Part shown: piece after piece, positions 3,824 to 51,050 of the stretch | Position numbering within the stretch: position 1 is the first letter of the stretch | Layout of the letters: each line of letters opens with the position of its first letter | Origin: a virus | Taxonomy: Duplodnaviria; Caudoviricetes | DNA: 51,281 bases | IMG/VR virus record: IMGVR_UViG_3300048865_000015 | Location: 1-51,281 of that record | Direction: 5' to 3' (one strand) | Made by a program: the position numbers and the translations under genes | The notes under the pieces: model-generated | Seen by the model: the letters and a program-made list of their open reading frames with translations, nothing else | The model's database searches: none | Told to the model about the DNA's origin: nothing

Positions 3824-4573
3824 ATGGCGACCACGAACGGCGGACTCGATACGACAATGCTGATTCTGTTCTGCGGCAGTCATTACTACGTCATCGACGA
3901 CATCAACAAGTGCGATGTATATGCGGGGCCGAGCCGAATCACGGATACCTGGCCGGAGCTGCAGCATATCCAGGTTGCCCCCGGGGGGACGGCAACGGGA
4001 ACCTTCGCCTCGGATCTCGACGCTGTCTACTACGAAGTGAGTTCCAGAAAATTAGTATTTTTCAAAGGCGCGAGCTGCACCGTCGCCGACTATTCCAGTG
4101 GCCAGAAACCCACATGGGACAGCGGGCTCATAACGGAGTTCTACCAATTTTCCGAACACCCCTACACGGTATCCTTCACGGCCGACATTGATGGCGCAGT
4201 CGTGGGATTAGGTTGGGTACTGCAGCTCTACCTGTACAAGGAGGGGGATTACACCTCCGGAACATCGAGGCCGCCCCGGAAAGGCAGTCCGATGTCCATG
4301 GATAACGCGGGTACGCTGGCACAGGCGGGCTGGGACAATCTGCTGCAGGGCGACAGCATCGTGGCAGCGGAGTACGTCTATCCGCCCGAAAGGCCGCGGG
4401 AATCGGCCCTGTTCACTACCCATAAGAAGAACAGCCAGTCGGTCGACGACTACGCGATCATGTTCTTTCGCTCCAGGCAGCAGAATGCTCCGCTGAATAA
4501 ACTGTGGCCTCACTTCAACGGCGCTCCAGTCGATGCCGCGGTGCGGCTGGATCCCAGCTTCTGCGGCTGCTGA
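3824..4573 (+). CDS. Hemopexin-repeat-like protein (copy 2, C-terminally shortened)
   Basis: Highly similar to 2169..3287; TGA at 4571 where copy 1 has GGA. Confidence 0.6.
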   Translation: MATTNGGLDTTMLILFCGSHYYVIDDINKCDVYAGPSRITDTWPELQHIQVAPGGTATGTFASDLDAVYYEVSSRKLVFFKGASCTVADYSSGQKPTWDSGLITEFYQFSEHPYTVSFTADIDGAVVGLGWVLQLYLYKEGDYTSGTSRPPRKGSPMSMDNAGTLAQAGWDNLLQGDSIVAAEYVYPPERPRESALFTTHKKNSQSVDDYAIMFFRSRQQNAPLNKLWPHFNGAPVDAAVRLDPSFCGC

Positions 4574-4785
4574 AATACTGGCTCCGGCAACCCTGGCTCT
4601 GGTCACCCTGGCTCCGATGATCCTGGTAGCGGCACGGGACAATCGATGTGCTGCGAGCTTCAGCTGATACTACGACCCTGTGGCGCGACGGGACTACCCC
4701 CGAAACGGTGGACAGGCGGGCACCTCACGCGGCGGCGCACCTGGCGCGCCGGAGGTGGTCACGTTCTGGGCACAGTCGCCGATGG

Positions 4786-4815
4786 AATAAAAAACGCCGC
4801 TGGCTAGAGCGGCGT
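4786..4815 (-). terminator. Intrinsic terminator downstream of the displaced tRNA 3' end
   Basis: Minus strand acgccgct-ctagcc-agcggcgt followed by a T-run. Confidence 0.6.
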
Positions 4816-4838
4816 AAGTGTTTAAAGCACAAGATTTT

Positions 4839-4883
4839 TGGTAGGCCCCCCGAGAGTCGAACTCGGCACCAACGGATTATGAG
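4839..4883 (-). repeat. Left att junction: displaced original 3' half of the tRNA(CAT)
   Basis: 45-bp near repeat of 50972..51016; exact 18-bp core gcaccaacggattatgag at 4866-4883 and 50999-51016. Confidence 0.93.
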
Positions 4884-4927
4884 AACGGTCCCGGTGCCCG
4901 AGGCCATTGATTTATAAGGACTTTTCG

Positions 4928-5827
4928 ATGATCGCAGCAGAGAGCGAATCGGATCATGGGCTTACAGTCCCCACGTTTTCCCCCACGGTGACCCTCCCGG
5001 CTCCTGTAGGTGCTCATGACCACGCCGCACAGCGCGAGTGGGAGCACTATCAGGTAGCCAAGGGCATCGAGCGCTACCGCCGCAGCCTCGTCCGAGAGAA
5101 CAAGCATGGCAAAGTCACCCAGCGAGACCTGGGAGATGTCACGCACGGACAGCGCATCGCTTCCGAGTTGATCGGGCCGATGGTTGCGGCGGTAAGCGAG
5201 TATCAGCAGGCGTTCGCAGACCGGCTCAACAGCCCGGACTGCCCTGACCGCCTCCCCGAGGCGACCACCGCCCTCACCCTGCTGCCGGCGGAGACCATCG
5301 CCGCCTGCGCCGTCCTGACCGCCCTGGCGAACCCCGTGGACGCCGGATGGACGTCGGTGCGAATCGCCTGCGCCGCCCGGCTCCGCCATGAGCTGGAGTA
5401 CCAGGAGTGGAAGCGGGCCGAGGCCGCCGCCGAGAAGGAGCGAAAGGCCACGGGCGAGGACGGGATCAACCTGTTCAAGCTGATGCTCCGCAGGACCAAG
5501 GGGGACGTGGACAAGCGCGTCTTCGACAAGTGGTCAAAGAAGTCCGGGAAGCTGCTCAAGCAGCACTGGGACCAGCGTCTCAAGGTCTTCATCGGCGGCG
5601 AAGTCATGACGCTGCTGGTGGAGTCCAACGGATGGTTCAAGGTCGAGTCGAAGTTCGAGCCCGGCCAGAAGTACCCGAAAGAAATGTTCGGGATGACGGA
5701 GACGGCCCTGGCCCTCACCAGTCACCTCGAAGGGCAGTGCGAATTGCAACGCCCATTCCTGGCCCCGATGATCTGCGAGCCCGCAGACTACGTGGTCGAA
5801 CCGCAGGTTTCTGCCGCTCTCAACTAA
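4928..5827 (+). CDS. T7-type RNA polymerase, N-terminal domain subunit
   Basis: QREWEHYQVAKGIERYRR resembles T7 QLALEHESYEMGEARFRK; ends RPFLAPMICEPADY resembling T7 PMFQPCVVPPKPW; AAGGA RBS before ATG 4928. Confidence 0.8.
   Translation: MIAAESESDHGLTVPTFSPTVTLPAPVGAHDHAAQREWEHYQVAKGIERYRRSLVRENKHGKVTQRDLGDVTHGQRIASELIGPMVAAVSEYQQAFADRLNSPDCPDRLPEATTALTLLPAETIAACAVLTALANPVDAGWTSVRIACAARLRHELEYQEWKRAEAAAEKERKATGEDGINLFKLMLRRTKGDVDKRVFDKWSKKSGKLLKQHWDQRLKVFIGGEVMTLLVESNGWFKVESKFEPGQKYPKEMFGMTETALALTSHLEGQCELQRPFLAPMICEPADYVVEPQVSAALN
4967..4990 (+). promoter_or_regulatory. Putative integrase arm-type site pair (CCCCACG x2)
   Basis: GTCCCCACGTTTTCCCCCACGGTG matches 50879-50902 at 21/24. Confidence 0.55.
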
Positions 5828-5845
5828 AGTGAATCGCTTACAAGG
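5825..5845 (+). promoter_or_regulatory. Operator-like palindrome (AAGTG-aat-CGCTT)
   Basis: Member of a 7-copy motif TAAAGYG-N3-CRCYT. Confidence 0.65.
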
Positions 5846-5855
5846 ATCTGTCGCC

Positions 5856-6050
5856 ATGAACCAAACTTACCCGCAAAACATCCTGGCAGACGTGCCCTGC
5901 ACGGTCGTAATCGCCGGCCGCACCATCCGCGTCGACCTGCCCAATGGCGTGCGCATCGGCGACTCCCATTGGGAGCACGAGGTCGCCAAGCGCGTCGCGC
6001 AGGGCATCCAGGACGCCTTCGAAACCTTCCCTCCCCGGAGCCACGTATGA
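5856..6050 (+). CDS. Hypothetical protein between RNAP halves
   Basis: AAGGA RBS; ATGA-coupled to the next ORF. Confidence 0.6.
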   Translation: MNQTYPQNILADVPCTVVIAGRTIRVDLPNGVRIGDSHWEHEVAKRVAQGIQDAFETFPPRSHV

Positions 6051-6292
6051 GCCGCATTCCCTGCCGCACTGGCGACGTTAACGCCGCCCTCGAAGCCATG
6101 CAGAACCGCGTAGAGGTCGTCTTCGTAGGCCCTACCGGCTCCACCGTCGAGATCTCCGACGACGGAGGCCGCACCTACCCGGTCCGCATGTACATGCCGG
6201 CCAGCTGGAACGACGCGGACGACCTCCGAGCGTTCGCCAAGCTGTTCAAGAAGCTGGCGAAGCGCCTGGAGCGCGAAGGACGCGGTAACTGA
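6047..6292 (+). CDS. Hypothetical protein between RNAP halves
   Basis: GGAG RBS, ATGA overlap, phage-like codon usage. Confidence 0.6.
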   Translation: MSRIPCRTGDVNAALEAMQNRVEVVFVGPTGSTVEISDDGGRTYPVRMYMPASWNDADDLRAFAKLFKKLAKRLEREGRGN

Positions 6293-6344
6293 AACACCCG
6301 CCCCATCGGGGCACCCTGAGACGCTGACTGGATACTGAAACCAA

Positions 6345-8048
6345 ATGACGAAACTGAACGGCGGTTACCTGACCCTCAAGACGGACGCGGTGAAGTCGAC
6401 CGAGTACACCAACACGCACACGTCGGCCCTGGACGTCCCCCTGAAGGGGGCGCACCTGGAGGCCCTGAACCACATCCAGAAGACCCGCTGGCGCATCAAC
6501 CCGCGCGTCCTGGAGACGGCCCTGGGCGTCAAGGCGCGTGCGATGAACGTCGCTGGCTTCCCCGCCTGGGAAGAGAAGAAGCTGCCGGAGTTCCCGGCGT
6601 CGGGCATCACGACCTCGCCGGAGTTCAAGGCGCACATCCGCGAGCGGGAGAAGATCCACAACGAGAACGCCCGGAACGCCGGCATGCGGAAGAAGCTCTT
6701 CGACATGCTGGCGATGGCCGACGAGCTGCGGGCATTCCCCGCGCTCTGGTTCCCGCACTACGCGGACTTCCGTGGTCGCTTCTACCCGCGCCCCCAGGAC
6801 CTGCACACGCAGGGCGATAGCCTCGTCAAGGGGCTCCTGGAGTTCGCGGAGCCGGTAATGACCAGCTCGCGCGGGTTCTTCTGGATGTGCGTCAACGCGG
6901 CGAACTACTACGGCGAGGACAAGCTGTTCCTGCATGAGCGGGCGCAGTGGGCGCAGGACCACATGGACGGCATCCTGGCCGTGGCCCACGACCCCCTGGG
7001 CGACGTGGACGCAAAGGCGTTTGAGTTCTGGTCCAACGCGGACAGCCCCTGGGAGTTCCTGGCGGCCTGCTTCGCCATCCAGGAGGCCGGCGCCTACCTG
7101 CGCGAGCACCCGGACTCCCCGACGTTCCCGAGCCGCATGGTGTGCCGCTATGACGCGACCTGCTCCGGCATCCAGCACCTCTCGGCCCTGATGAAGGACG
7201 AGAAGTCTGCCGCGCGTGTCAACGTGCTGCCCACCGGGCGCCGCGAGGACATCTACAAGGACGTGGCCGAGGCGGTGATACCCGAGATCCGCCGGGACAT
7301 CGTGAACAGCACCACGGCGGCCCTGGCGGCACTGTGGGACGGCCGAGTCGAGCGCAAGACCGTCAAGCGGGCCGTCATGACGACGCCCTATGGCGTGTCG
7401 GAGCGCGGCATTCTGACGCAGCTGGTGGCCGATGGCTTCGCTGACCACGTCGAGAAGGGCAAGGACCGCTACGCGGCGGCCGAGTACCTGACCGAGAAGA
7501 TCGTCGGTGCCCTGGACGAGTCCATCGAAGCCCCGCGCCGCGCCATGGCGTACTTCCGCGAGGTCGCCAAGTTCCTGGAAGAGCGGGACCTGCCCCTCGT
7601 GTGGGACACCCCGAGCGGGTTCACCGCGAAGCAGGCGTACTTCAAGACCGACGTGACGCGAGTCACGACGCTGTCCGGGAAGGTCACCCTGCGGCACGAG
7701 TGCCCCGAGGCCGGCTTCCAGCCCGGCAAGCAGGTCCTGGGCGCGGCGCCGAACGTGGTTCACTCGTTCGATGCGACCCACCTTGCCCTGGTGTGCGTCG
7801 AGATGAAGCGGCGCGGCATCCGCGACCTCGCCTTCGTCCATGACTCGTTCGGATGTCACGCCGAGCACAGCGACGTCCTCCTGGAAGTCACCAAGGACAA
7901 GTTCATCGAGCTGTACAGCGGCGACACGCTGGAGCAGTGGCGTCAATCAGTTATCCGGCACTCAGGGTGCCCCGATGTACCCGCAATACCTGCCCTCGGC
8001 AACCTGGACGTTGAGTGCGTCCGCAAGTCCGAGTTCTTTTTCTCCTGA
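6345..8048 (+). CDS. T7-type RNA polymerase, catalytic subunit
   Basis: DFRGRFYP, motif A YDATCSGIQH, motif B RKTVKRAVMTTPYG, motif C FVHDSFG, C-terminal FFFS. Confidence 0.95.
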   Translation: MTKLNGGYLTLKTDAVKSTEYTNTHTSALDVPLKGAHLEALNHIQKTRWRINPRVLETALGVKARAMNVAGFPAWEEKKLPEFPASGITTSPEFKAHIREREKIHNENARNAGMRKKLFDMLAMADELRAFPALWFPHYADFRGRFYPRPQDLHTQGDSLVKGLLEFAEPVMTSSRGFFWMCVNAANYYGEDKLFLHERAQWAQDHMDGILAVAHDPLGDVDAKAFEFWSNADSPWEFLAACFAIQEAGAYLREHPDSPTFPSRMVCRYDATCSGIQHLSALMKDEKSAARVNVLPTGRREDIYKDVAEAVIPEIRRDIVNSTTAALAALWDGRVERKTVKRAVMTTPYGVSERGILTQLVADGFADHVEKGKDRYAAAEYLTEKIVGALDESIEAPRRAMAYFREVAKFLEERDLPLVWDTPSGFTAKQAYFKTDVTRVTTLSGKVTLRHECPEAGFQPGKQVLGAAPNVVHSFDATHLALVCVEMKRRGIRDLAFVHDSFGCHAEHSDVLLEVTKDKFIELYSGDTLEQWRQSVIRHSGCPDVPAIPALGNLDVECVRKSEFFFS

Positions 8049-8050
8049 TA

Positions 8051-8066
8051 TAAAGTGAGTCACTTA
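8051..8066 (+). promoter_or_regulatory. Operator-like palindrome (AAGTG-agt-CACTT)
   Basis: Perfect inverted-repeat member of the 7-copy motif. Confidence 0.65.
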
Positions 8067-8067
8067 G

Positions 8068-8808
8068 ATGCAAGCAGTTAAGCTCCCCTACAGCAGCGTG
8101 ACGCAGATCGTTGCCGCCTTCAACCAGGGCGCTAAGTTCAAAGTCATTACCGCCACGGGCCATGAGTACCCGGTCTCCGCCATCAAGCCCAGTCCCTCCT
8201 ACACGGGGTTCAGGGTCGCGGCCGGCGGCAAGGACTACAGCATGTTCAACCCTGACGGGACTCACAGGACGAATGAAAAGCTGAAGCTCGTGGCCGTGGA
8301 CGCGGCGGACAGGTACGCCAGGGTCTTCGTTACCGAGGAAGAGGCCCAGGCCATGCAGGCGGCCAAGTCGTCCCACGCCCCGGCGTACAGGTCGCCCTTC
8401 GCCGCCGACCCGCGCCCGGTGACCTCGAAGGGAGTGCTGGAGCCGCGCAAGCCCGCCCCGTTCCTGCAACGGTACTTCGCTGGAGTCACCTTCCACAACC
8501 CGAAGACCCGCGAGATCGTCCATAACGTTGACGTCTCCGGGACCCAGATGGTCGTCACGCTGCGCAACCCGGAGACGGGCGCCCTGCGCACCACGCCTCG
8601 CTACAACCTGAACGGGACGCACAAGTTCCAGGCCGACCGCAATCTGGTCGAGGGCAACCCGCCCAAGGCGCCCAAGAAGGTGCGCGTGAAGGTCTACAAG
8701 AACGCGATCAACGGCCATCTCTTCGTCATCCGCGAGGGCGAGGTCCTGCCGAACATCCGGGGGATCAGCAACGCCACCGTGGTAGGCAGCACGACCATCA
8801 CCGAGTAA
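8068..8808 (+). CDS. Hypothetical phage protein with two internally similar segments
   Basis: 246-aa ORF; FNPDGTHR / YNLNGTHK similarity. Confidence 0.7.
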   Translation: MQAVKLPYSSVTQIVAAFNQGAKFKVITATGHEYPVSAIKPSPSYTGFRVAAGGKDYSMFNPDGTHRTNEKLKLVAVDAADRYARVFVTEEEAQAMQAAKSSHAPAYRSPFAADPRPVTSKGVLEPRKPAPFLQRYFAGVTFHNPKTREIVHNVDVSGTQMVVTLRNPETGALRTTPRYNLNGTHKFQADRNLVEGNPPKAPKKVRVKVYKNAINGHLFVIREGEVLPNIRGISNATVVGSTTITE

Positions 8809-21725: not shown

Positions 21726-21800
21726 TCCGAAGTAGCTCAGTGGTAGAGCCCCCGGCTGTTAACCGGGCGGTCCTTGGTTCGATCCCAAGCTTCGGAGCCA
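21726..21800 (+). tRNA. tRNA-Asn(GTT), phage-encoded
   Basis: Acceptor TCCGAAG/CTTCGGA, anticodon arm cccgg-ctGTTaa-ccggg, T arm cttgg-ttcgatc-ccaag, encoded CCA. Confidence 0.92.
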
Positions 21801-45797: not shown

Positions 45798-45849
45798 GGT
45801 CGAAACGGGCGTAAGCCCGTCCACGTGTAAGGCACGTGCTGATGAGACC
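45798..45849 (+). ncRNA. Hammerhead ribozyme type II (HHR1)
   Basis: ggtc-GAAA-cgggc(gtaa)gcccg-TC^-cacgtg(taagg)cacgtg-CTGATGA-gacc; predicted cleavage after 45821. Confidence 0.92.
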
Positions 45850-45886
45850 GACGCAAGCCCGCGTCATAAACAATGGAGCAATCAAA

Positions 45887-46898: not shown

Positions 46899-46951
46899 GG
46901 TCGAAACGGGCCATGTGCCCGTCCACGTGTAAGGCACGTGCTGATGAGACC
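46899..46951 (+). ncRNA. Hammerhead ribozyme type II (HHR2)
   Basis: As HHR1 but loop III is catgt; predicted cleavage after 46923. Confidence 0.92.
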
Positions 46952-47136: not shown

Positions 47137-47138
47137 CA

Positions 47139-47190
47139 GGTCGAAACGGGCGTAAGCCCGTCCACGTGTAAGGCACGTGCTGATGAGACC
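47139..47190 (+). ncRNA. Hammerhead ribozyme type II (HHR3)
   Basis: Identical to HHR1; predicted cleavage after 47162. Confidence 0.92.
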
Positions 47191-47851: not shown

Positions 47852-47906
47852 GGACGAAACACGGCATCGCGCCGTGTCTGCGCGTGATTCGCGTACTGAT
47901 GAGTCC
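47852..47906 (+). ncRNA. Hammerhead ribozyme type II (HHR4, divergent stems)
   Basis: ggac-GAAA-cacggc(atcgc)gccgtg-TC^-tgcgcg(tgatt)cgcgta-CTGATGA-gtcc; predicted cleavage after 47878. Confidence 0.9.
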
Positions 47907-47928
47907 ATAACCCAATGTAGAGATAGAC

Positions 47929-49295: not shown

Positions 49296-49525
49296 CGAGT
49301 GGGGCAATCGAGTCAGCGACCTGTTTACAGAATGCCCCGAGACGCCCTACTTCGCCATCGACCTGGGCGAGCTGGAATTGGTGGTGGAAGTGGTCGGCGG
49401 CTGGGTACGGATCCACACACCGAATTGGGTGATGCTCTGGCAAGAGCCTGAGACAACCTGTACTTTCAATGCGCTCTGGTCGCGGCTCACGCAGATCGGA
49501 GACGGCCTGGGAATCGAGAGGAATC

Positions 49526-50752
49526 ATGACACTCTACAAGCGGCCTGATAGCGACGTCTGGTGGTACGAGTTCCAGGTGGCGGGCAACCGCTACCGTGGC
49601 AGCACCAAGACGGCCAATAAGCGCGAAGCGACGGCCATTGAGGTCGAGCGGAGGCGGGAAGCCGTCGAGGACCTGTCGCGTGCCCGTCTGGGCATAAAGC
49701 GATTCACTTTGTGGGAAGTCGCTCAGAAGTGGCTGGCCTCGTCCGAGCATGCACTGAAGGACCACAAGAACAACGTGAGCCGCGTGCGCAAGCTCTTCGG
49801 GATCGAGATGGTCCAGGAGGGCAAGGGCAACTGGGTGGAGGTCGAGGGCAAGCGCTACGGCCTGTCCAAGACCCTCTATGTCCACGAGGTGACCCAGGAC
49901 ACCCTGATGACCCTCCGGGACACCCGTGTCCGCGAAGGGAACTCCCCGGCCACCATCAACCGCGAGATGTCGCTGATGCAGTCCCTGATGGGCTACGCGG
50001 CGGACATGCGCTGCGTGATGCCGGCCGTGCCTATCGTGTGGAGCCAGAAGCGCAACCGCGCGGCGTCGCTGAAGATGCGGGAGCCGGGCGGCAAGCTGCG
50101 CTGGCTCACCGTACCCGAAGAGAAGGCCGTGCTCGCCAAGCTGGCCGAGGCGATCCATGAGGGCGACTGCGCCGGCCAGGACAACTACGACCTGTCCGTG
50201 CTGCTCCTGGACACCGGGGCGCGGTACAGCGAGATCGCGGAGCTGAAGTGGTCCCAGGTGGACCTGGACGCGGGCCGGATCTACCTGTACCGCCCCAAGG
50301 TGGACAACGAGGGCGGCCTGGACCTCACGGCGCGGTCCCTGGAGATCCTTAAGCGGCGCCGGGAAGCCACGCGGCCCCGTAGCTTCGTCTTCCCGGGCAT
50401 GCGCCCGGCGGGCCGAGGCCGGCAGGTGTGGGTGGATGTGGATGTGTGCCGTGGGCATGCGACGGACGGCATACAGCAGGCGATAGACGCCGCCGGCCTG
50501 AACGCGGACCTCTCGCGCGGCAAGGCGACGCCGCACACCTTCCGGGACACCTTCGCGTCACGGCTGGTCCAGGCGGGCCTGTCGCTTCTCAAGGTGAGCC
50601 ATCTGCTCGGCCACGCGGACGAGTCGATGACCCGTAAGTACGCGCACCTGTGCCCGGAGAACACCGGACGCGAGGCGCGGGACCTCCTGAACCGGCTGCA
50701 TGCGAGTAACTCGACACAGGGTGACGACCCTATCGCCGTCGCCCTGGGTTGA
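49526..50752 (+). CDS. int: Tyrosine integrase
   Basis: Arm-binding N-terminus LYKR..VWWYEF; DTGARYSE, HTFRDTFASRL, LLGH, KYAH. Confidence 0.95.
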   Translation: MTLYKRPDSDVWWYEFQVAGNRYRGSTKTANKREATAIEVERRREAVEDLSRARLGIKRFTLWEVAQKWLASSEHALKDHKNNVSRVRKLFGIEMVQEGKGNWVEVEGKRYGLSKTLYVHEVTQDTLMTLRDTRVREGNSPATINREMSLMQSLMGYAADMRCVMPAVPIVWSQKRNRAASLKMREPGGKLRWLTVPEEKAVLAKLAEAIHEGDCAGQDNYDLSVLLLDTGARYSEIAELKWSQVDLDAGRIYLYRPKVDNEGGLDLTARSLEILKRRREATRPRSFVFPGMRPAGRGRQVWVDVDVCRGHATDGIQQAIDAAGLNADLSRGKATPHTFRDTFASRLVQAGLSLLKVSHLLGHADESMTRKYAHLCPENTGREARDLLNRLHASNSTQGDDPIAVALG

Positions 50753-50846
50753 GAAACTGGACACAGGGTGACGACCCTATGGCCGTAGCCCAACAAGTCA
50801 GGAGACGGTCATGCGCGAGTAACTGGACACAGGGTGACGACCCTAT
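50704..50846 (+). repeat. Three 30-bp direct repeats GAGWAACTSGACACAGGGTGACGACCCTAT
   Basis: Copies at 50704, 50751, 50817; first part matches the promoter-like motif at 18570/48617. Confidence 0.85.
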
Positions 50847-50878
50847 CGGGACGTTGCGTGGGAGCCACGATGCAAGTG

Positions 50879-50916
50879 GTCCCCACGTTCCGCCCCACGG
50901 TGAAGCTCCCCACGGT
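50879..50916 (+). promoter_or_regulatory. Putative integrase arm-type sites (CCCCACG x3)
   Basis: Counterpart of 4967-4990 on the other side of the att core. Confidence 0.55.
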
Positions 50917-50949
50917 AAAGCCGGTTGCTTTATACTTCCGGCTTAACTT

Positions 50950-50971
50950 CCTGAGTTTGCTCAGGTTTTAT
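50950..50971 (+). terminator. Hairpin/terminator next to att
   Basis: cctgag-tttg-ctcagg followed by ttttat. Confidence 0.45.

Positions 50972-51050
<79 letters not shown>

Follow-up and report, generated by a model that had tools for sequence, protein, structure and literature searches.

A naturally split T7-type RNA polymerase encoded by two genes of a T7-like prophage

The polymerase locus and its prophage

We analyzed a 51,281-nt stretch of viral DNA (Caudoviricetes; IMG/VR record IMGVR_UViG_3300048865_000015), hereafter the window. It holds a complete T7-like prophage whose integration site is tRNA-Met. The window has a G+C content of ∼64%, and one of four sequencing runs holds the whole stretch and may be its source. 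An attL site marks the left border of the ∼46-kb prophage, which encodes SSB, RusA, primase-helicase, DNA polymerase, exonuclease, portal, capsid, tail and internal virion proteins, terminase, and integrase. A second promoter-like motif is present in three tandem copies at 50704–50835. The prophage has only one RNA polymerase (RNAP) locus, and its polymerase is not encoded as one polypeptide: two ORFs, termed here the N-half and the C-half genes, lie 517 bp apart, and the interval contains stop codons in every frame as well as two further ORFs (Table 1). The N-half gene is the first gene of the prophage and starts 44 nt past the att core.

Table 1. Features of the split polymerase locus and of the prophage border (positions in the window)
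Feature	Position	Strand	Description
attL	4835–4883		49-nt copy, 90% identical, of the tRNA-Met 3' part
RNAP N-half gene	4928–5827	+	299 aa; PHROG, family profile, alignment to T7
20-nt oriented motif AACTAAAGTGAATCGCTTAC	5822–5841	+	overlaps the N-half stop codon TAA (5825–5827)
ORF A	5856–6050	+	64 aa; homologues in the same gap of relatives L022 and L004
ORF B	6047–6292	+	81 aa; homologues in the same gap of relatives L003 and L004
RNAP C-half gene	6345–8048	+	567 aa; Pfam, PHROG, motif alignment to T7
Second 20-nt motif copy ATATAAAGTGAGTCACTTAG	8048–8067	+	abuts the C-half stop, ends directly before the ATG of the next ORF (8068)
attL partner	50968–51016		inside the intact tRNA-Met 50972–51050 (−)

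A first-pass annotation, made from the DNA letters alone, had taken the first ORF for the N-terminal part of a T7-type polymerase and the second for its continuation, and our analysis confirms both ORFs. ATG 4928 is the likelier start codon of the N-half (an AAGGA Shine-Dalgarno sequence lies 8 nt upstream), with TTG 4907 as the alternative. The N-half protein terminates in ...RPFLAPMICEPADYVVEPQVSAALN and carries the conserved tail RPFLAPMICEPADY; the C-half begins with MTKLNGGYL. We find no recognizable Shine-Dalgarno sequence at the C-half start in the window or in the relatives L003, L004, L022, and L028.

PHROG family 414 (RNA polymerase, 816 positions) is matched by the N-half over profile positions 5–245 (E = 2.9e-15) and by the C-half over positions 248–816. 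No part of the polymerase is thus lost between the two ORFs, in keeping with the earlier remark that the segments flanking the cut are contiguous in T7. Of the two Pfam assignments proposed as a check, RNA_pol (PF00940) is clear for the C-half (313.3 bits, cut-off 22, residues 175–537), whereas the N-half scores 25 bits with RPOL_N (PF14700), under the gathering score of 30.1. Single-sequence searches with the N-half gave no meaningful match in the Protein Data Bank (phmmer) and a single weak match in phage records (tblastn), and a family profile was needed: a profile built from 32 stand-alone N-halves matches residues 20–234 of T7 RNAP (E = 1.5e-5). Using T7 gene 1 from NC_001604 as reference, we find the N-half to be colinear with T7 residues ∼20–278, and the C-half equivalent to residues ∼279–883 (C-half residue 39 aligns with T7 residue 318). 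As the T7 enzyme has PPKPW at residues 274–278 and GGGYW at 283–287, the cut maps within a four-residue linker, between Trp-278 and Gly-283. The two halves add up to 866 aa (299 + 567), and the N-terminal domain is of full length.

The catalytic motifs had been described as intact, and they are. The C-half contains DFRGR (141–145), YDATCSGIQH (Asp-270), KRAVMTTPYG (Lys-341 and Tyr-349), His-473, HDSFG (Asp-500), and a C-terminal FFFS. These align with the DxxGR block and with Asp-537, Lys-631, Tyr-639, His-784, and Asp-812 of T7 RNAP, and are invariant across 36 homologues.

Conservation of the split among relatives

A protein search with the C-half returned 643 matches at E ≤ 0.001 (eligible lengths 311–993 aa), the best 120 of which we examined. 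All but three fused proteins (808–839 aa) are shorter than 650 aa, and in 109 of these 117 short matches a GG[YFW] occurs among the first 21 residues. The same cut is hence found in 109 of the 120 best matches, at identities down to about 35%. Stand-alone N-half homologues number 42 (261–352 aa, 35–70% identity); they come from Burkholderia, Cupriavidus, Ralstonia, Achromobacter, Caldimonas, and Variovorax and are labeled “hypothetical protein.” The locus tags of N-half and C-half are consecutive in two of these named genomes. The N-half family should accordingly be annotated as phage RNA polymerase N-terminal subunit.

An alignment-based scan of viral contigs in IMG/VR yielded 80 related loci; a single-protein query gave no locus. 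Twelve are split at this site and 57 are fused here; two more are fused here but cut elsewhere, and nine are cut off by the contig end. All 13 split loci (window included) have an N-half ORF directly upstream of the C-half and an ATG 3–9 codons ahead of the GGY motif, and eight have a Shine-Dalgarno-like site. The N-half tails extend beyond the conserved motif by 1 to ∼25 aa among relatives. Relatives diverged by about 10% and with the same N-gap-C order are present in an isolate run (X2) and in a soil metagenome run (X4). Nucleotide searches were less productive: in 50,697 phage records, blastn with 4800–8100 found no more than 4 short matches. A single-protein scan of genome contigs gave only one irrelevant match of 48 residues (L001).

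Phylogenetic analysis places all 13 split rows in one clade of 15 rows (SH-aLRT 97), so that the trait needs two changes. The remaining two rows, L011 and L015, are fused and nest within the split clade, and a re-fusion or a second cut must therefore be assumed; constraining the split rows to a single clade was not rejected (AU p = 0.115). Fused genes in close relatives, together with halves that are inactive as a pair, had been named as evidence that would count against a natural split; two such genes do exist inside the clade, and the other 13 rows are split. NG86 estimates of dN/dS are 0.25 for the N-half and 0.28 for the C-half (window versus L003), and 0.38 and 0.25, respectively (L006 versus L022); they are rough, since dS is near saturation (0.65–1.0). 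Taken together, the sequence comparisons confirm that the split is real, old, and not a product of decay, as the first-pass annotation had argued.

The inter-half boundary and a proposed two-subunit enzyme

The spacer between the halves (5828–6344, 517 bp) contains two overlapping small ORFs, the ATG of ORF B overlapping the stop codon of ORF A (ATGA), in keeping with the coupled ORFs first described. Neither ORF matches a Pfam or PHROG family, and neither has a usable feature match in the ESM Atlas, where the structure rows have TM scores of ∼0.5 or less. An exhaustive phmmer search with ORF B against 1.84 billion representatives returned 16 matches, namely the query, six proteins of 63–76 aa, and nine others (344–2866 aa, matched over several short stretches each), which we read as spurious. 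The gap differs widely among relatives, from a 4-nt ATGA overlap (L020) over 9–33 bp (L028, L012, and L008) to 1685 bp (L006), and its cargo is unrelated between them; L010, for example, carries a Bro-N/ANT gene. With its genome-specific motif and ever-changing cargo, the inter-half boundary is a clear example of an accessory-gene hot spot in T7-like genomes.

The 20-nt motif on the N-half stop codon occurs in six copies in the window (≤3 mismatches), with 0.04 expected by chance, and both half genes carry it at their stop codons, in the window as well as in four of the five closest relatives. The copy behind the C-half occupies the position of the T7 phi1.1A/B promoters after gene 1. This pattern looks more like a candidate phage promoter or a cassette boundary than an operator. 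The “operator-like site” of the first-pass annotation may correspond to the copy at 5822–5841; the other candidate is an imperfect 18-nt palindrome at 6071–6088, which lies inside ORF B and has no other copy. An operator between the halves is not borne out; the site is one of several oriented copies of a genome-specific motif, which is located on both stop codons. On this reading, separate regulation of the halves would be plausible.

We think it likely that a single-subunit-type RNA polymerase of a T7-like prophage is made here as two polypeptides, which would associate non-covalently and be active; this confidence refers to the explanation as a whole. The N-half would carry that part of the N-terminal domain which binds and melts the promoter. 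Its T7 counterpart contains the AT-rich recognition loop and the intercalating hairpin, which are needed for promoter opening. The C-half contributes the end of the N-terminal domain together with thumb, palm, fingers, and all catalytic residues. The invariant N-half tail (RP..PMICEP.DY) would dock onto the first residues of the C-half and onto its WFPHY/DFRGR region, thereby rebuilding the T7 architecture around a cut in a short, variable surface linker (T7 residues 279–282). The cut arose once, at most twice, in a lineage of prophages with named homologues predominantly in Burkholderiales, and has been under purifying selection since. The boundary carries the oriented 20-nt motif, probably a phage-type promoter present also after the C-half gene, and has taken up different small accessory genes in different relatives, here ORF A and ORF B. 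The two-subunit reading of the first-pass annotation therefore stands in its core, a genuine, selected two-gene enzyme with a promoter-binding part and a catalytic body, and is not supported with respect to the operator.

Complex prediction, which had been suggested as a check, gave a score of 0.79 for the two halves, with 0.00 for the best of three controls; this mark is reached by 116 of 157 solved complexes and by 2 of 215 mismatched pairs. At least 77% of the contacts are shared between runs, the partner pLDDT is at least 70, and the predicted interface comprises N-half residues 275 and 278–291 and C-half residues 2–11, 31–49, 124–138, and 149–154. The halves are thus predicted to dock on each other, but because T7 RNAP has been solved as one chain, the score may stem from T7 structures known to the model and indicates resemblance, not binding. 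In the one RNA library (X3), the only signal is two short metatranscriptome contigs, both inside the N-half (4933–5114 and 5516–5663), which could be DNA carry-over; spacer and C-half have no cover there.

Three other explanations would dispense with a two-subunit enzyme. A once-fused polymerase may have been broken by insertion and be an inactive pseudogene in a decaying prophage. The window is indeed a prophage, public genomes label both halves only as hypothetical protein or partial RNAP, and the RNA library covers none of the C-half. We nevertheless regard decay as very improbable, as the cut has been kept in 109 of the 120 best matches and in 13 loci of one clade, dN/dS is 0.25–0.38 for both halves, all catalytic residues are invariant, the ORFs are tightly coupled in some relatives (L020), and the prophage is complete. 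A single-chain polymerase could also be restored if the spacer were spliced out, either from the RNA as a self-splicing intron or from the protein, or if ribosomes read through or shifted frame to get past it. Group I introns occur in phage genes, and the ORFs of L008 and L028 share a frame and are separated by one stop codon and 9–33 nt. Against this, an Rfam scan of 4500–8500 contained no intron family even at E up to 1 (the best match is a 21-bit miRNA), we find no intein or Hint domain, and the spacer consists of two conserved coding ORFs that match no Pfam or PHROG family. In four relatives the gap (−4 to 33 nt) could not accommodate an intron, and longer gaps, up to 1685 bp, hold unrelated genes, a range that excludes an intron or intein; the N-half tails past the conserved motif vary as well. 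RNA cover across the gap is nil, so that the lack of a read or contig spanning it is uninformative on splicing. A spliced-out spacer, which the first-pass annotation had itself set against its reading, is thus not supported by these comparisons, and we consider a restored single chain hardly credible. Somewhat less remote, though still improbable, is a C-half that acts alone or with another factor, the N-half having drifted to a different or dispensable role. All catalytic motifs reside in the C-half, and one study describes N4 RNAPII and mini-vRNAP as working with much-reduced N-terminal parts and outside cofactors (PMC4496689). Speaking for a retained function, the N-half lies directly upstream of the C-half at every split locus, is colinear with T7 residues 20–278, a region that holds promoter-opening elements in T7, is under the same selection as the C-half, and has an invariant tail predicted to dock on the C-half.

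A more far-reaching account, which we put forward tentatively and regard as doubtful, is that the split, far from being neutral, is a regulatory device of temperate T7-like phages, an AND gate that silences the polymerase in the lysogen, with the boundary motif as a recombination point. Since the N-half starts 44 nt past the att core, integration severs it from the sequence upstream of attP, which here is the region of the three tandem copies of the second promoter-like motif; the C-half is preceded by a 20-nt motif copy of its own, at the stop codon of the N-half. The polymerase would then become active only when two separately controlled inputs coincide, a natural counterpart of the engineered split-T7 AND gates, and a self-amplifying polymerase would thereby be held in check in the lysogen. 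The boundary motif would double as a recombination point that captures accessory genes, and the near-identical layout in temperate pelagiphages would represent convergence on this design.

Comparison with known split polymerases

Full-text literature searches returned no description of a split RNAP in T7-like beta-proteobacterial prophages, which the survey of Boeckman et al. 2022 (Virology 568:86) may mention. N4 RNAPII had been cited as the known case, and the novelty thereby implied does not hold: the hinge-split layout is on record in marine SAR11 phages since 2019. The RNA polymerase of HTVC019Pvirus group III pelagiphages is described as “fragmented into two parts” by Chen et al. 2019 (PMC6811365), and the annotation of Pelagibacter phage HTVC025P (MH598799) lists RNA polymerase gp09 (329 aa), gp10, gp11, and RNA polymerase gp12 (558 aa). 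HTVC025P and the window both represent temperate T7-like phages with an integrase, with two small unannotated ORFs between an N-part of ∼300–330 aa and a C-part of ∼560 aa, and in both the cut falls at the same hinge region within the N-terminal domain. The HTVC025P cut lies after the GGY motif, whereas that of the window lies before it: gp09 ends ...PRDWESPFIGGYYGRKF... and gp12 begins at T7 ∼LVRTHS, about 10 residues downstream of the window cut. The two C-halves are 28% identical, and the host of HTVC025P is SAR11, of low G+C, in contrast to the G+C-rich window and its mostly Burkholderiales homologues. HTVC025P gp12 is found in the other main branch of the tree, beside the fused HTVC019P and T7 genes (support 99, FastTree), and its cut therefore arose independently.

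The hinge cut of a T7-type polymerase has thus been made at least twice in temperate lineages and kept over long divergence. This is evidence from nature that the mobile promoter-binding module need not share a polypeptide with the catalytic body. We know of no hinge-split enzyme that has been studied biochemically, and the genes are ready-made candidates for biochemistry and for orthogonal two-input transcription parts. Fused relatives (L009, L013, L017, and L062; L011 and L015; HTVC019P) share the neighborhood and the ...PM..PP.PW and GGY motifs, but have one ORF of 787–877 aa with a 4–8-residue linker where the split genes have a stop codon, a spacer, and a start codon.

Coliphage N4 RNAPII is the characterized heterodimeric T7-like enzyme (gp15, 269 aa, and gp16, 404 aa; PMC4496689). 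Like the polymerase of the window, it has two neighboring genes, and their products align to separate stretches of T7 RNAP without overlap. Its cut lies further downstream, as first stated: it follows the DX2GR block, with motifs A–C in gp16 (PMC4496689), whereas DFRGR of the window is located 140 residues inside the C-half. N4 RNAPII is also smaller (total ∼673 aa, compared with 866 aa in the window), its N-terminal domain and thumb being truncated, and it needs the cofactors gp1 and gp2 (PMC4496689). T7 RNAP itself (883 aa) is a single chain with the same domain order and catalytic residues as the window. A bisection study reports five “seams” and an enzyme that works when cut artificially at 67, 179, or 601, the fragments reassembling to active enzyme and serving as AND-type control elements (PMC4299498). 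The split in the window differs from these engineered cuts in being natural, in its position at T7 278/283, and in doing without added dimerization domains.

Position of the cut and integrity of the two halves

The first-pass annotation had proposed a T7-type RNA polymerase naturally split into two ORFs with no segment lost, and both points stand. ORF1 (N-half) and ORF2 (C-half) are separate genes with a 517-bp spacer between them, which contains two small ORFs, A and B. The halves match PHROG 414 (RNA polymerase, 816 positions) at profile positions 5-245 and 248-816, respectively; these matches abut, and ORF1 and ORF2 thus represent consecutive pieces with none missing. In T7 gene 1 (reference sequence from NC_001604) PPKPW corresponds to residues 274-278 and GGGYW to residues 283-287, which places the cut in the four-residue linker between these motifs. 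The Pfam profiles suggested as a check agree in part: RNA_pol scores 313 bits on ORF2, but RPOL_N reaches 25 bits on ORF1, under its threshold of 30.1 bits. A profile built from 32 stand-alone N-halves finds T7 RNAP residues 20-234 (E 1.5e-5). As annotated, the catalytic motifs are intact: the C-half contains DFRGR, motif A (D270), motif B (K341, Y349), H473, motif C (HDSFG, D500), and a C-terminal FFFS, all of them invariant across 36 homologues.

Coordinates of the polymerase genes, motifs and prophage features in the window
Feature	Position	Strand	Remarks
ORF1 (N-half)	4928-5827	+	299 aa; ATG 4928, TAA 5825-5827; AAGGA 8 nt upstream of ATG; C-terminal end ...RPFLAPMICEPADYVVEPQVSAALN
ORF A	5856-6050		in spacer
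ORF B	6047-6292		in spacer; overlaps ORF A in ATGA
ORF2 (C-half)	6345-8048	+	567 aa; N terminus MTKLNGGYL
246-aa ORF	8068-8808	+	begins immediately after second copy of 20-nt motif
20-nt motif AACTAAAGTGAATCGCTTAC	5822-5841	+	contains N-half stop codon
20-nt motif, copies	starts 5822, 8048, 45282, 45354, 45770, 48351	+	
Second oriented motif GAGTAACTCGACACARGGT	18571, 48618, 50704, 50751, 50817	+	5 copies vs 0.01 expected by chance
tRNA-Asn gene	21726-21800	+	within prophage, between scaffold and capsid genes
Hammerhead-ribozyme-like elements (four)	45798-45856, 46899-46951, 47138-47190, 47852-47916	+	cores CUGAUGAG ... CGAAAC
Integrase	49469-50752		last gene of prophage
49-nt direct repeat	4835-4883 and 50968-51016		copies 90% identical; 3' part of tRNA-Met gene
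tRNA-Met gene	50972-51050		

Conservation and history of the split

We queried the C-half against 5.8 billion proteins, admitting lengths of 311-993 aa so as not to exclude fused genes. Of the top 120 hits, 117 are shorter than 650 aa and three are fused (808, 809, and 839 aa). GG[YFW] is located within the first 21 residues, mostly at positions 4-10, in 109 of the 117 short hits; these proteins, with identities as low as about 35%, thus begin where the window's C-half does. Stand-alone N-half homologues (42 proteins, 261-352 aa, 35-70% identity) are labelled 'hypothetical protein' in Burkholderia, Cupriavidus, Ralstonia, Achromobacter, Caldimonas, and Variovorax, and the two halves have consecutive locus tags in Caldimonas and Variovorax. 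An alignment-based scan of IMG/VR, from which the best 80 of 590 relatives were kept, also returned the split that the annotation had suggested seeking: 12 loci are split at the window's cut site, 57 are fused there, two (L018 and L019) are fused there but cut elsewhere, and nine run off the contig end. An ORF matching the N-half profile is found directly upstream of the C-half in 13 of 13 split loci, window included. Relatives about 10% diverged, an isolate genome (sequencing run X2) and a soil metagenome (X4), have the same N-gap-C order.

A maximum-likelihood tree was calculated from 58 C-half rows. It omits 23 of the 80 loci (L014, L018, L019, L025, L030, L034, L039, L041, L042, L046, L047, L051, L054, L058, L060, L061, L063, L065, L066, L067, L069, L071, and L074), whose frame runs off the contig's 5' end, which appeared redundant with kept rows, or which are cut elsewhere (two loci). 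All 13 split rows fall inside one clade of 15 (SH-aLRT 97). The fused genes of L011 (5179-7671) and L015 (5104-7572) also fall inside this clade, where they form the sister group of the split L016 (support 99), and the tree thus requires two changes; a tree constrained to keep the split rows together passes the AU test (p 0.115). The history would comprise either one old cut and perhaps one re-fusion, or two cuts, and the L011 and L015 genes may be re-fusions of a split gene.

Could the arrangement reflect a decaying gene, or one whose spacer is removed? In the closest pairs the N-half has NG86 dN/dS ratios of 0.25 and 0.38 and the C-half ratios of 0.28 and 0.25, and on these values, which are rough with dS at 0.65-1.0 and near saturation, the two halves look equally constrained. 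We reject decay, against which the annotation had also argued, on the basis of the cut conserved in homologues and relatives, the common clade, and the dN/dS of both halves. Nothing in the sequence points to spacer removal: a search with Rfam over 4500-8500 returned no intron or other family beyond a chance 21-bit miRNA match, and coverage of RNA library X3 does not reach the spacer. The split is real and conserved, and the two genes very probably encode a working polymerase of two subunits.

Prediction of a complex between the halves, proposed as a check on two subunits, gave a score of 0.79 compared with 0.00 for the best of three controls; 116 of the 157 solved complexes and 2 of the 215 mismatched pairs attain this mark. 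At least 77% of contacts are shared between runs, the partner's pLDDT is 70 or higher, and the lowest-error contacts lie between the invariant tail of the N-half (278-291) and three stretches of the C-half, 2-11, 31-49, and 124-138, the last being the WFPHY region preceding DFRGR. T7 RNAP has often been solved as a single chain, so that the predicted docking may be a remembered T7 likeness and is no proof of binding. T7 RNAP tolerates artificial cuts at 67, 179, and 601 (PMC4299498).

Spacer, oriented motifs and prophage setting

Among relatives, no part of the locus varies more than the spacer. In L020 (840-915) the N-half stop TGA overlaps the C-half ATG as ATGA (4 nt), with GGAAGGAG upstream; of the two-gene layouts this one is the most compact, and it is translationally coupled. 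Spacers measure 9-33 nt in L028, L012, and L008 and 405-1685 nt in the remaining nine split loci, of which the window is one. Of the window's two spacer ORFs, A has counterparts in L022 and L004 and B in L003 and L004. Compared by eye, the L005 and L006 spacers seemingly share one small ORF unlike the window's; an ORF of L005 has weak, sub-threshold glycine-zipper matches, and L010 contains a Bro-N/ANT antirepressor-like gene. An ATG lies 3-9 codons ahead of the conserved GGY in 13 of 13 split loci, with a Shine-Dalgarno-like site in 8 of 13. Such a site is absent in L028 and likewise in the window (6325-6344), L003, L004, and L022, where a common ...CTGAAACC... stretch precedes the ATG.

The operator claimed between the halves was not borne out. 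Allowing up to three mismatches, AACTAAAGTGAATCGCTTAC occurs six times in the window, always on the + strand (0.04 expected by chance). The copy at 8048 abuts the C-half stop and terminates just before the next ATG; the 246-aa ORF that follows has no Pfam or PHROG family match. The motif has partial dyad symmetry (AAGYG..CRCTT), and its arms show no co-variation of the RNA-hairpin kind among copies. When a weight matrix from the six copies was run over the relatives' 9-13.7-kb loci, top matches coincided with the N- and C-half stops in L003 (ranks 4 and 3 among 13,649 positions scanned), L004 (2 and 1; 9,087), L005 (1 and 2; 9,779), L006 (1 and 2; 12,470), and L022 (43 and 1; 11,151), and the third-ranked L006 match immediately precedes the C-half start. 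In the more distant split loci (L007, L008, L010, L012, and L028) the matrix picks out nothing at the N-half stop, the best match there ranking 12th or lower. Copies are nearly identical within one genome and divergent between genomes. Homology between the window and the X2 isolate ends exactly at the post-C-half motif (8044-8067); X2 has its own copy, ...ATAAAGTGAGTTACTTAGATG, after the C-half stop and then a different gene, and by this alignment the motif is a mosaic boundary. T7 promoters phi1.1A and phi1.1B sit at the equivalent place after gene 1. Since the motif is oriented, multi-copy, genome-specific, and located at gene starts, we infer that a phage-polymerase promoter or a cassette boundary is a better reading of it than a repressor operator. 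The second operator candidate, an 18-nt imperfect palindrome (6071-6088), is located within ORF B and occurs nowhere else in the window.

The 51,281-base record is a whole IMG/VR virus record rated complete, with a single RNAP locus. The 49-nt repeats are, judging from their sequence, attL and attR bounding a ~46-kb prophage. Between them all large genes are on the + strand in T7 order: RNA polymerase, gp2.5-like SSB, RusA, primase-helicase, DNA polymerase, exonuclease, and dNMP kinase; then portal, scaffold, capsid, tail tube A and B, and internal virion proteins; then tail fibres, terminase, and integrase. The hammerhead-like elements sit among small ORFs in the terminase-integrase interval; three are 53-nt near-repeats, and two score 31.8 bits (E 9e-4) and 27.2 bits (E 0.015) against Rfam Hammerhead_II (gathering score 37).

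GAGTAACTCGACACARGGT is followed by GACGACCCTAT or GCGACCCTAT in four of five copies (all but 48618) and may define a second promoter class. Three tandem copies lie between the integrase gene and attR and would precede the N-half in the excised genome; L005, L006, and L022 have a related stretch after the N-half stop. After integration at tRNA-Met the N-half starts 44 nt from the att core (window 4835-4927 and 50860-51016), which severs the gene from sequences preceding attP in the free phage genome. It is therefore conceivable that the split helps to hold the polymerase silent in lysogens.

Comparison with known split polymerases

N4 RNAPII is cut after DX2GR, further downstream as the annotation had stated, and has a truncated N-terminal domain (PMC4496689); the window enzyme shows neither feature. 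A different natural cut, 14 nt wide, is found in L018 (297-2905) and L019 (4156-6752) just before the DFRTR (DxxGR) block, where ORF1 terminates in ...SLRGETTY and ORF2 begins MTTRISSRHTYPHFADFRTR; this site differs from both the N4 and the hinge site. Chen et al. 2019 describe an RNAP 'fragmented into two parts' in HTVC019Pvirus group III pelagiphages, except HTVC011P, and consider the fragmentation not recent (PMC6811365). The GenBank record of HTVC025P lists an RNA polymerase of 329 aa, small ORFs of 48 and 85 aa, and an RNA polymerase of 558 aa, a layout nearly identical to the window's. However, the HTVC025P cut follows GGY and lies about 10 residues further downstream than the window's, and a FastTree phylogeny places the HTVC025P C-half in the other main branch, alongside the fused genes of HTVC019P and T7; the two cuts are thus independent. 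A T7-type polymerase naturally encoded by two genes, with the cut near the hinge, is thus already known, solely as annotation and two sentences; the literature found, with Boeckman et al. 2022 outside its coverage, reports no biochemistry on any hinge-split form. By cut position and phylogeny, the window lineage is a new, independently arisen case of the kind noted in marine phages; its own contributions are the extent of the clade, the precise location of the cut (T7 278/283), a motif on both stop codons, and a gene boundary used as a slot for changing accessory genes.
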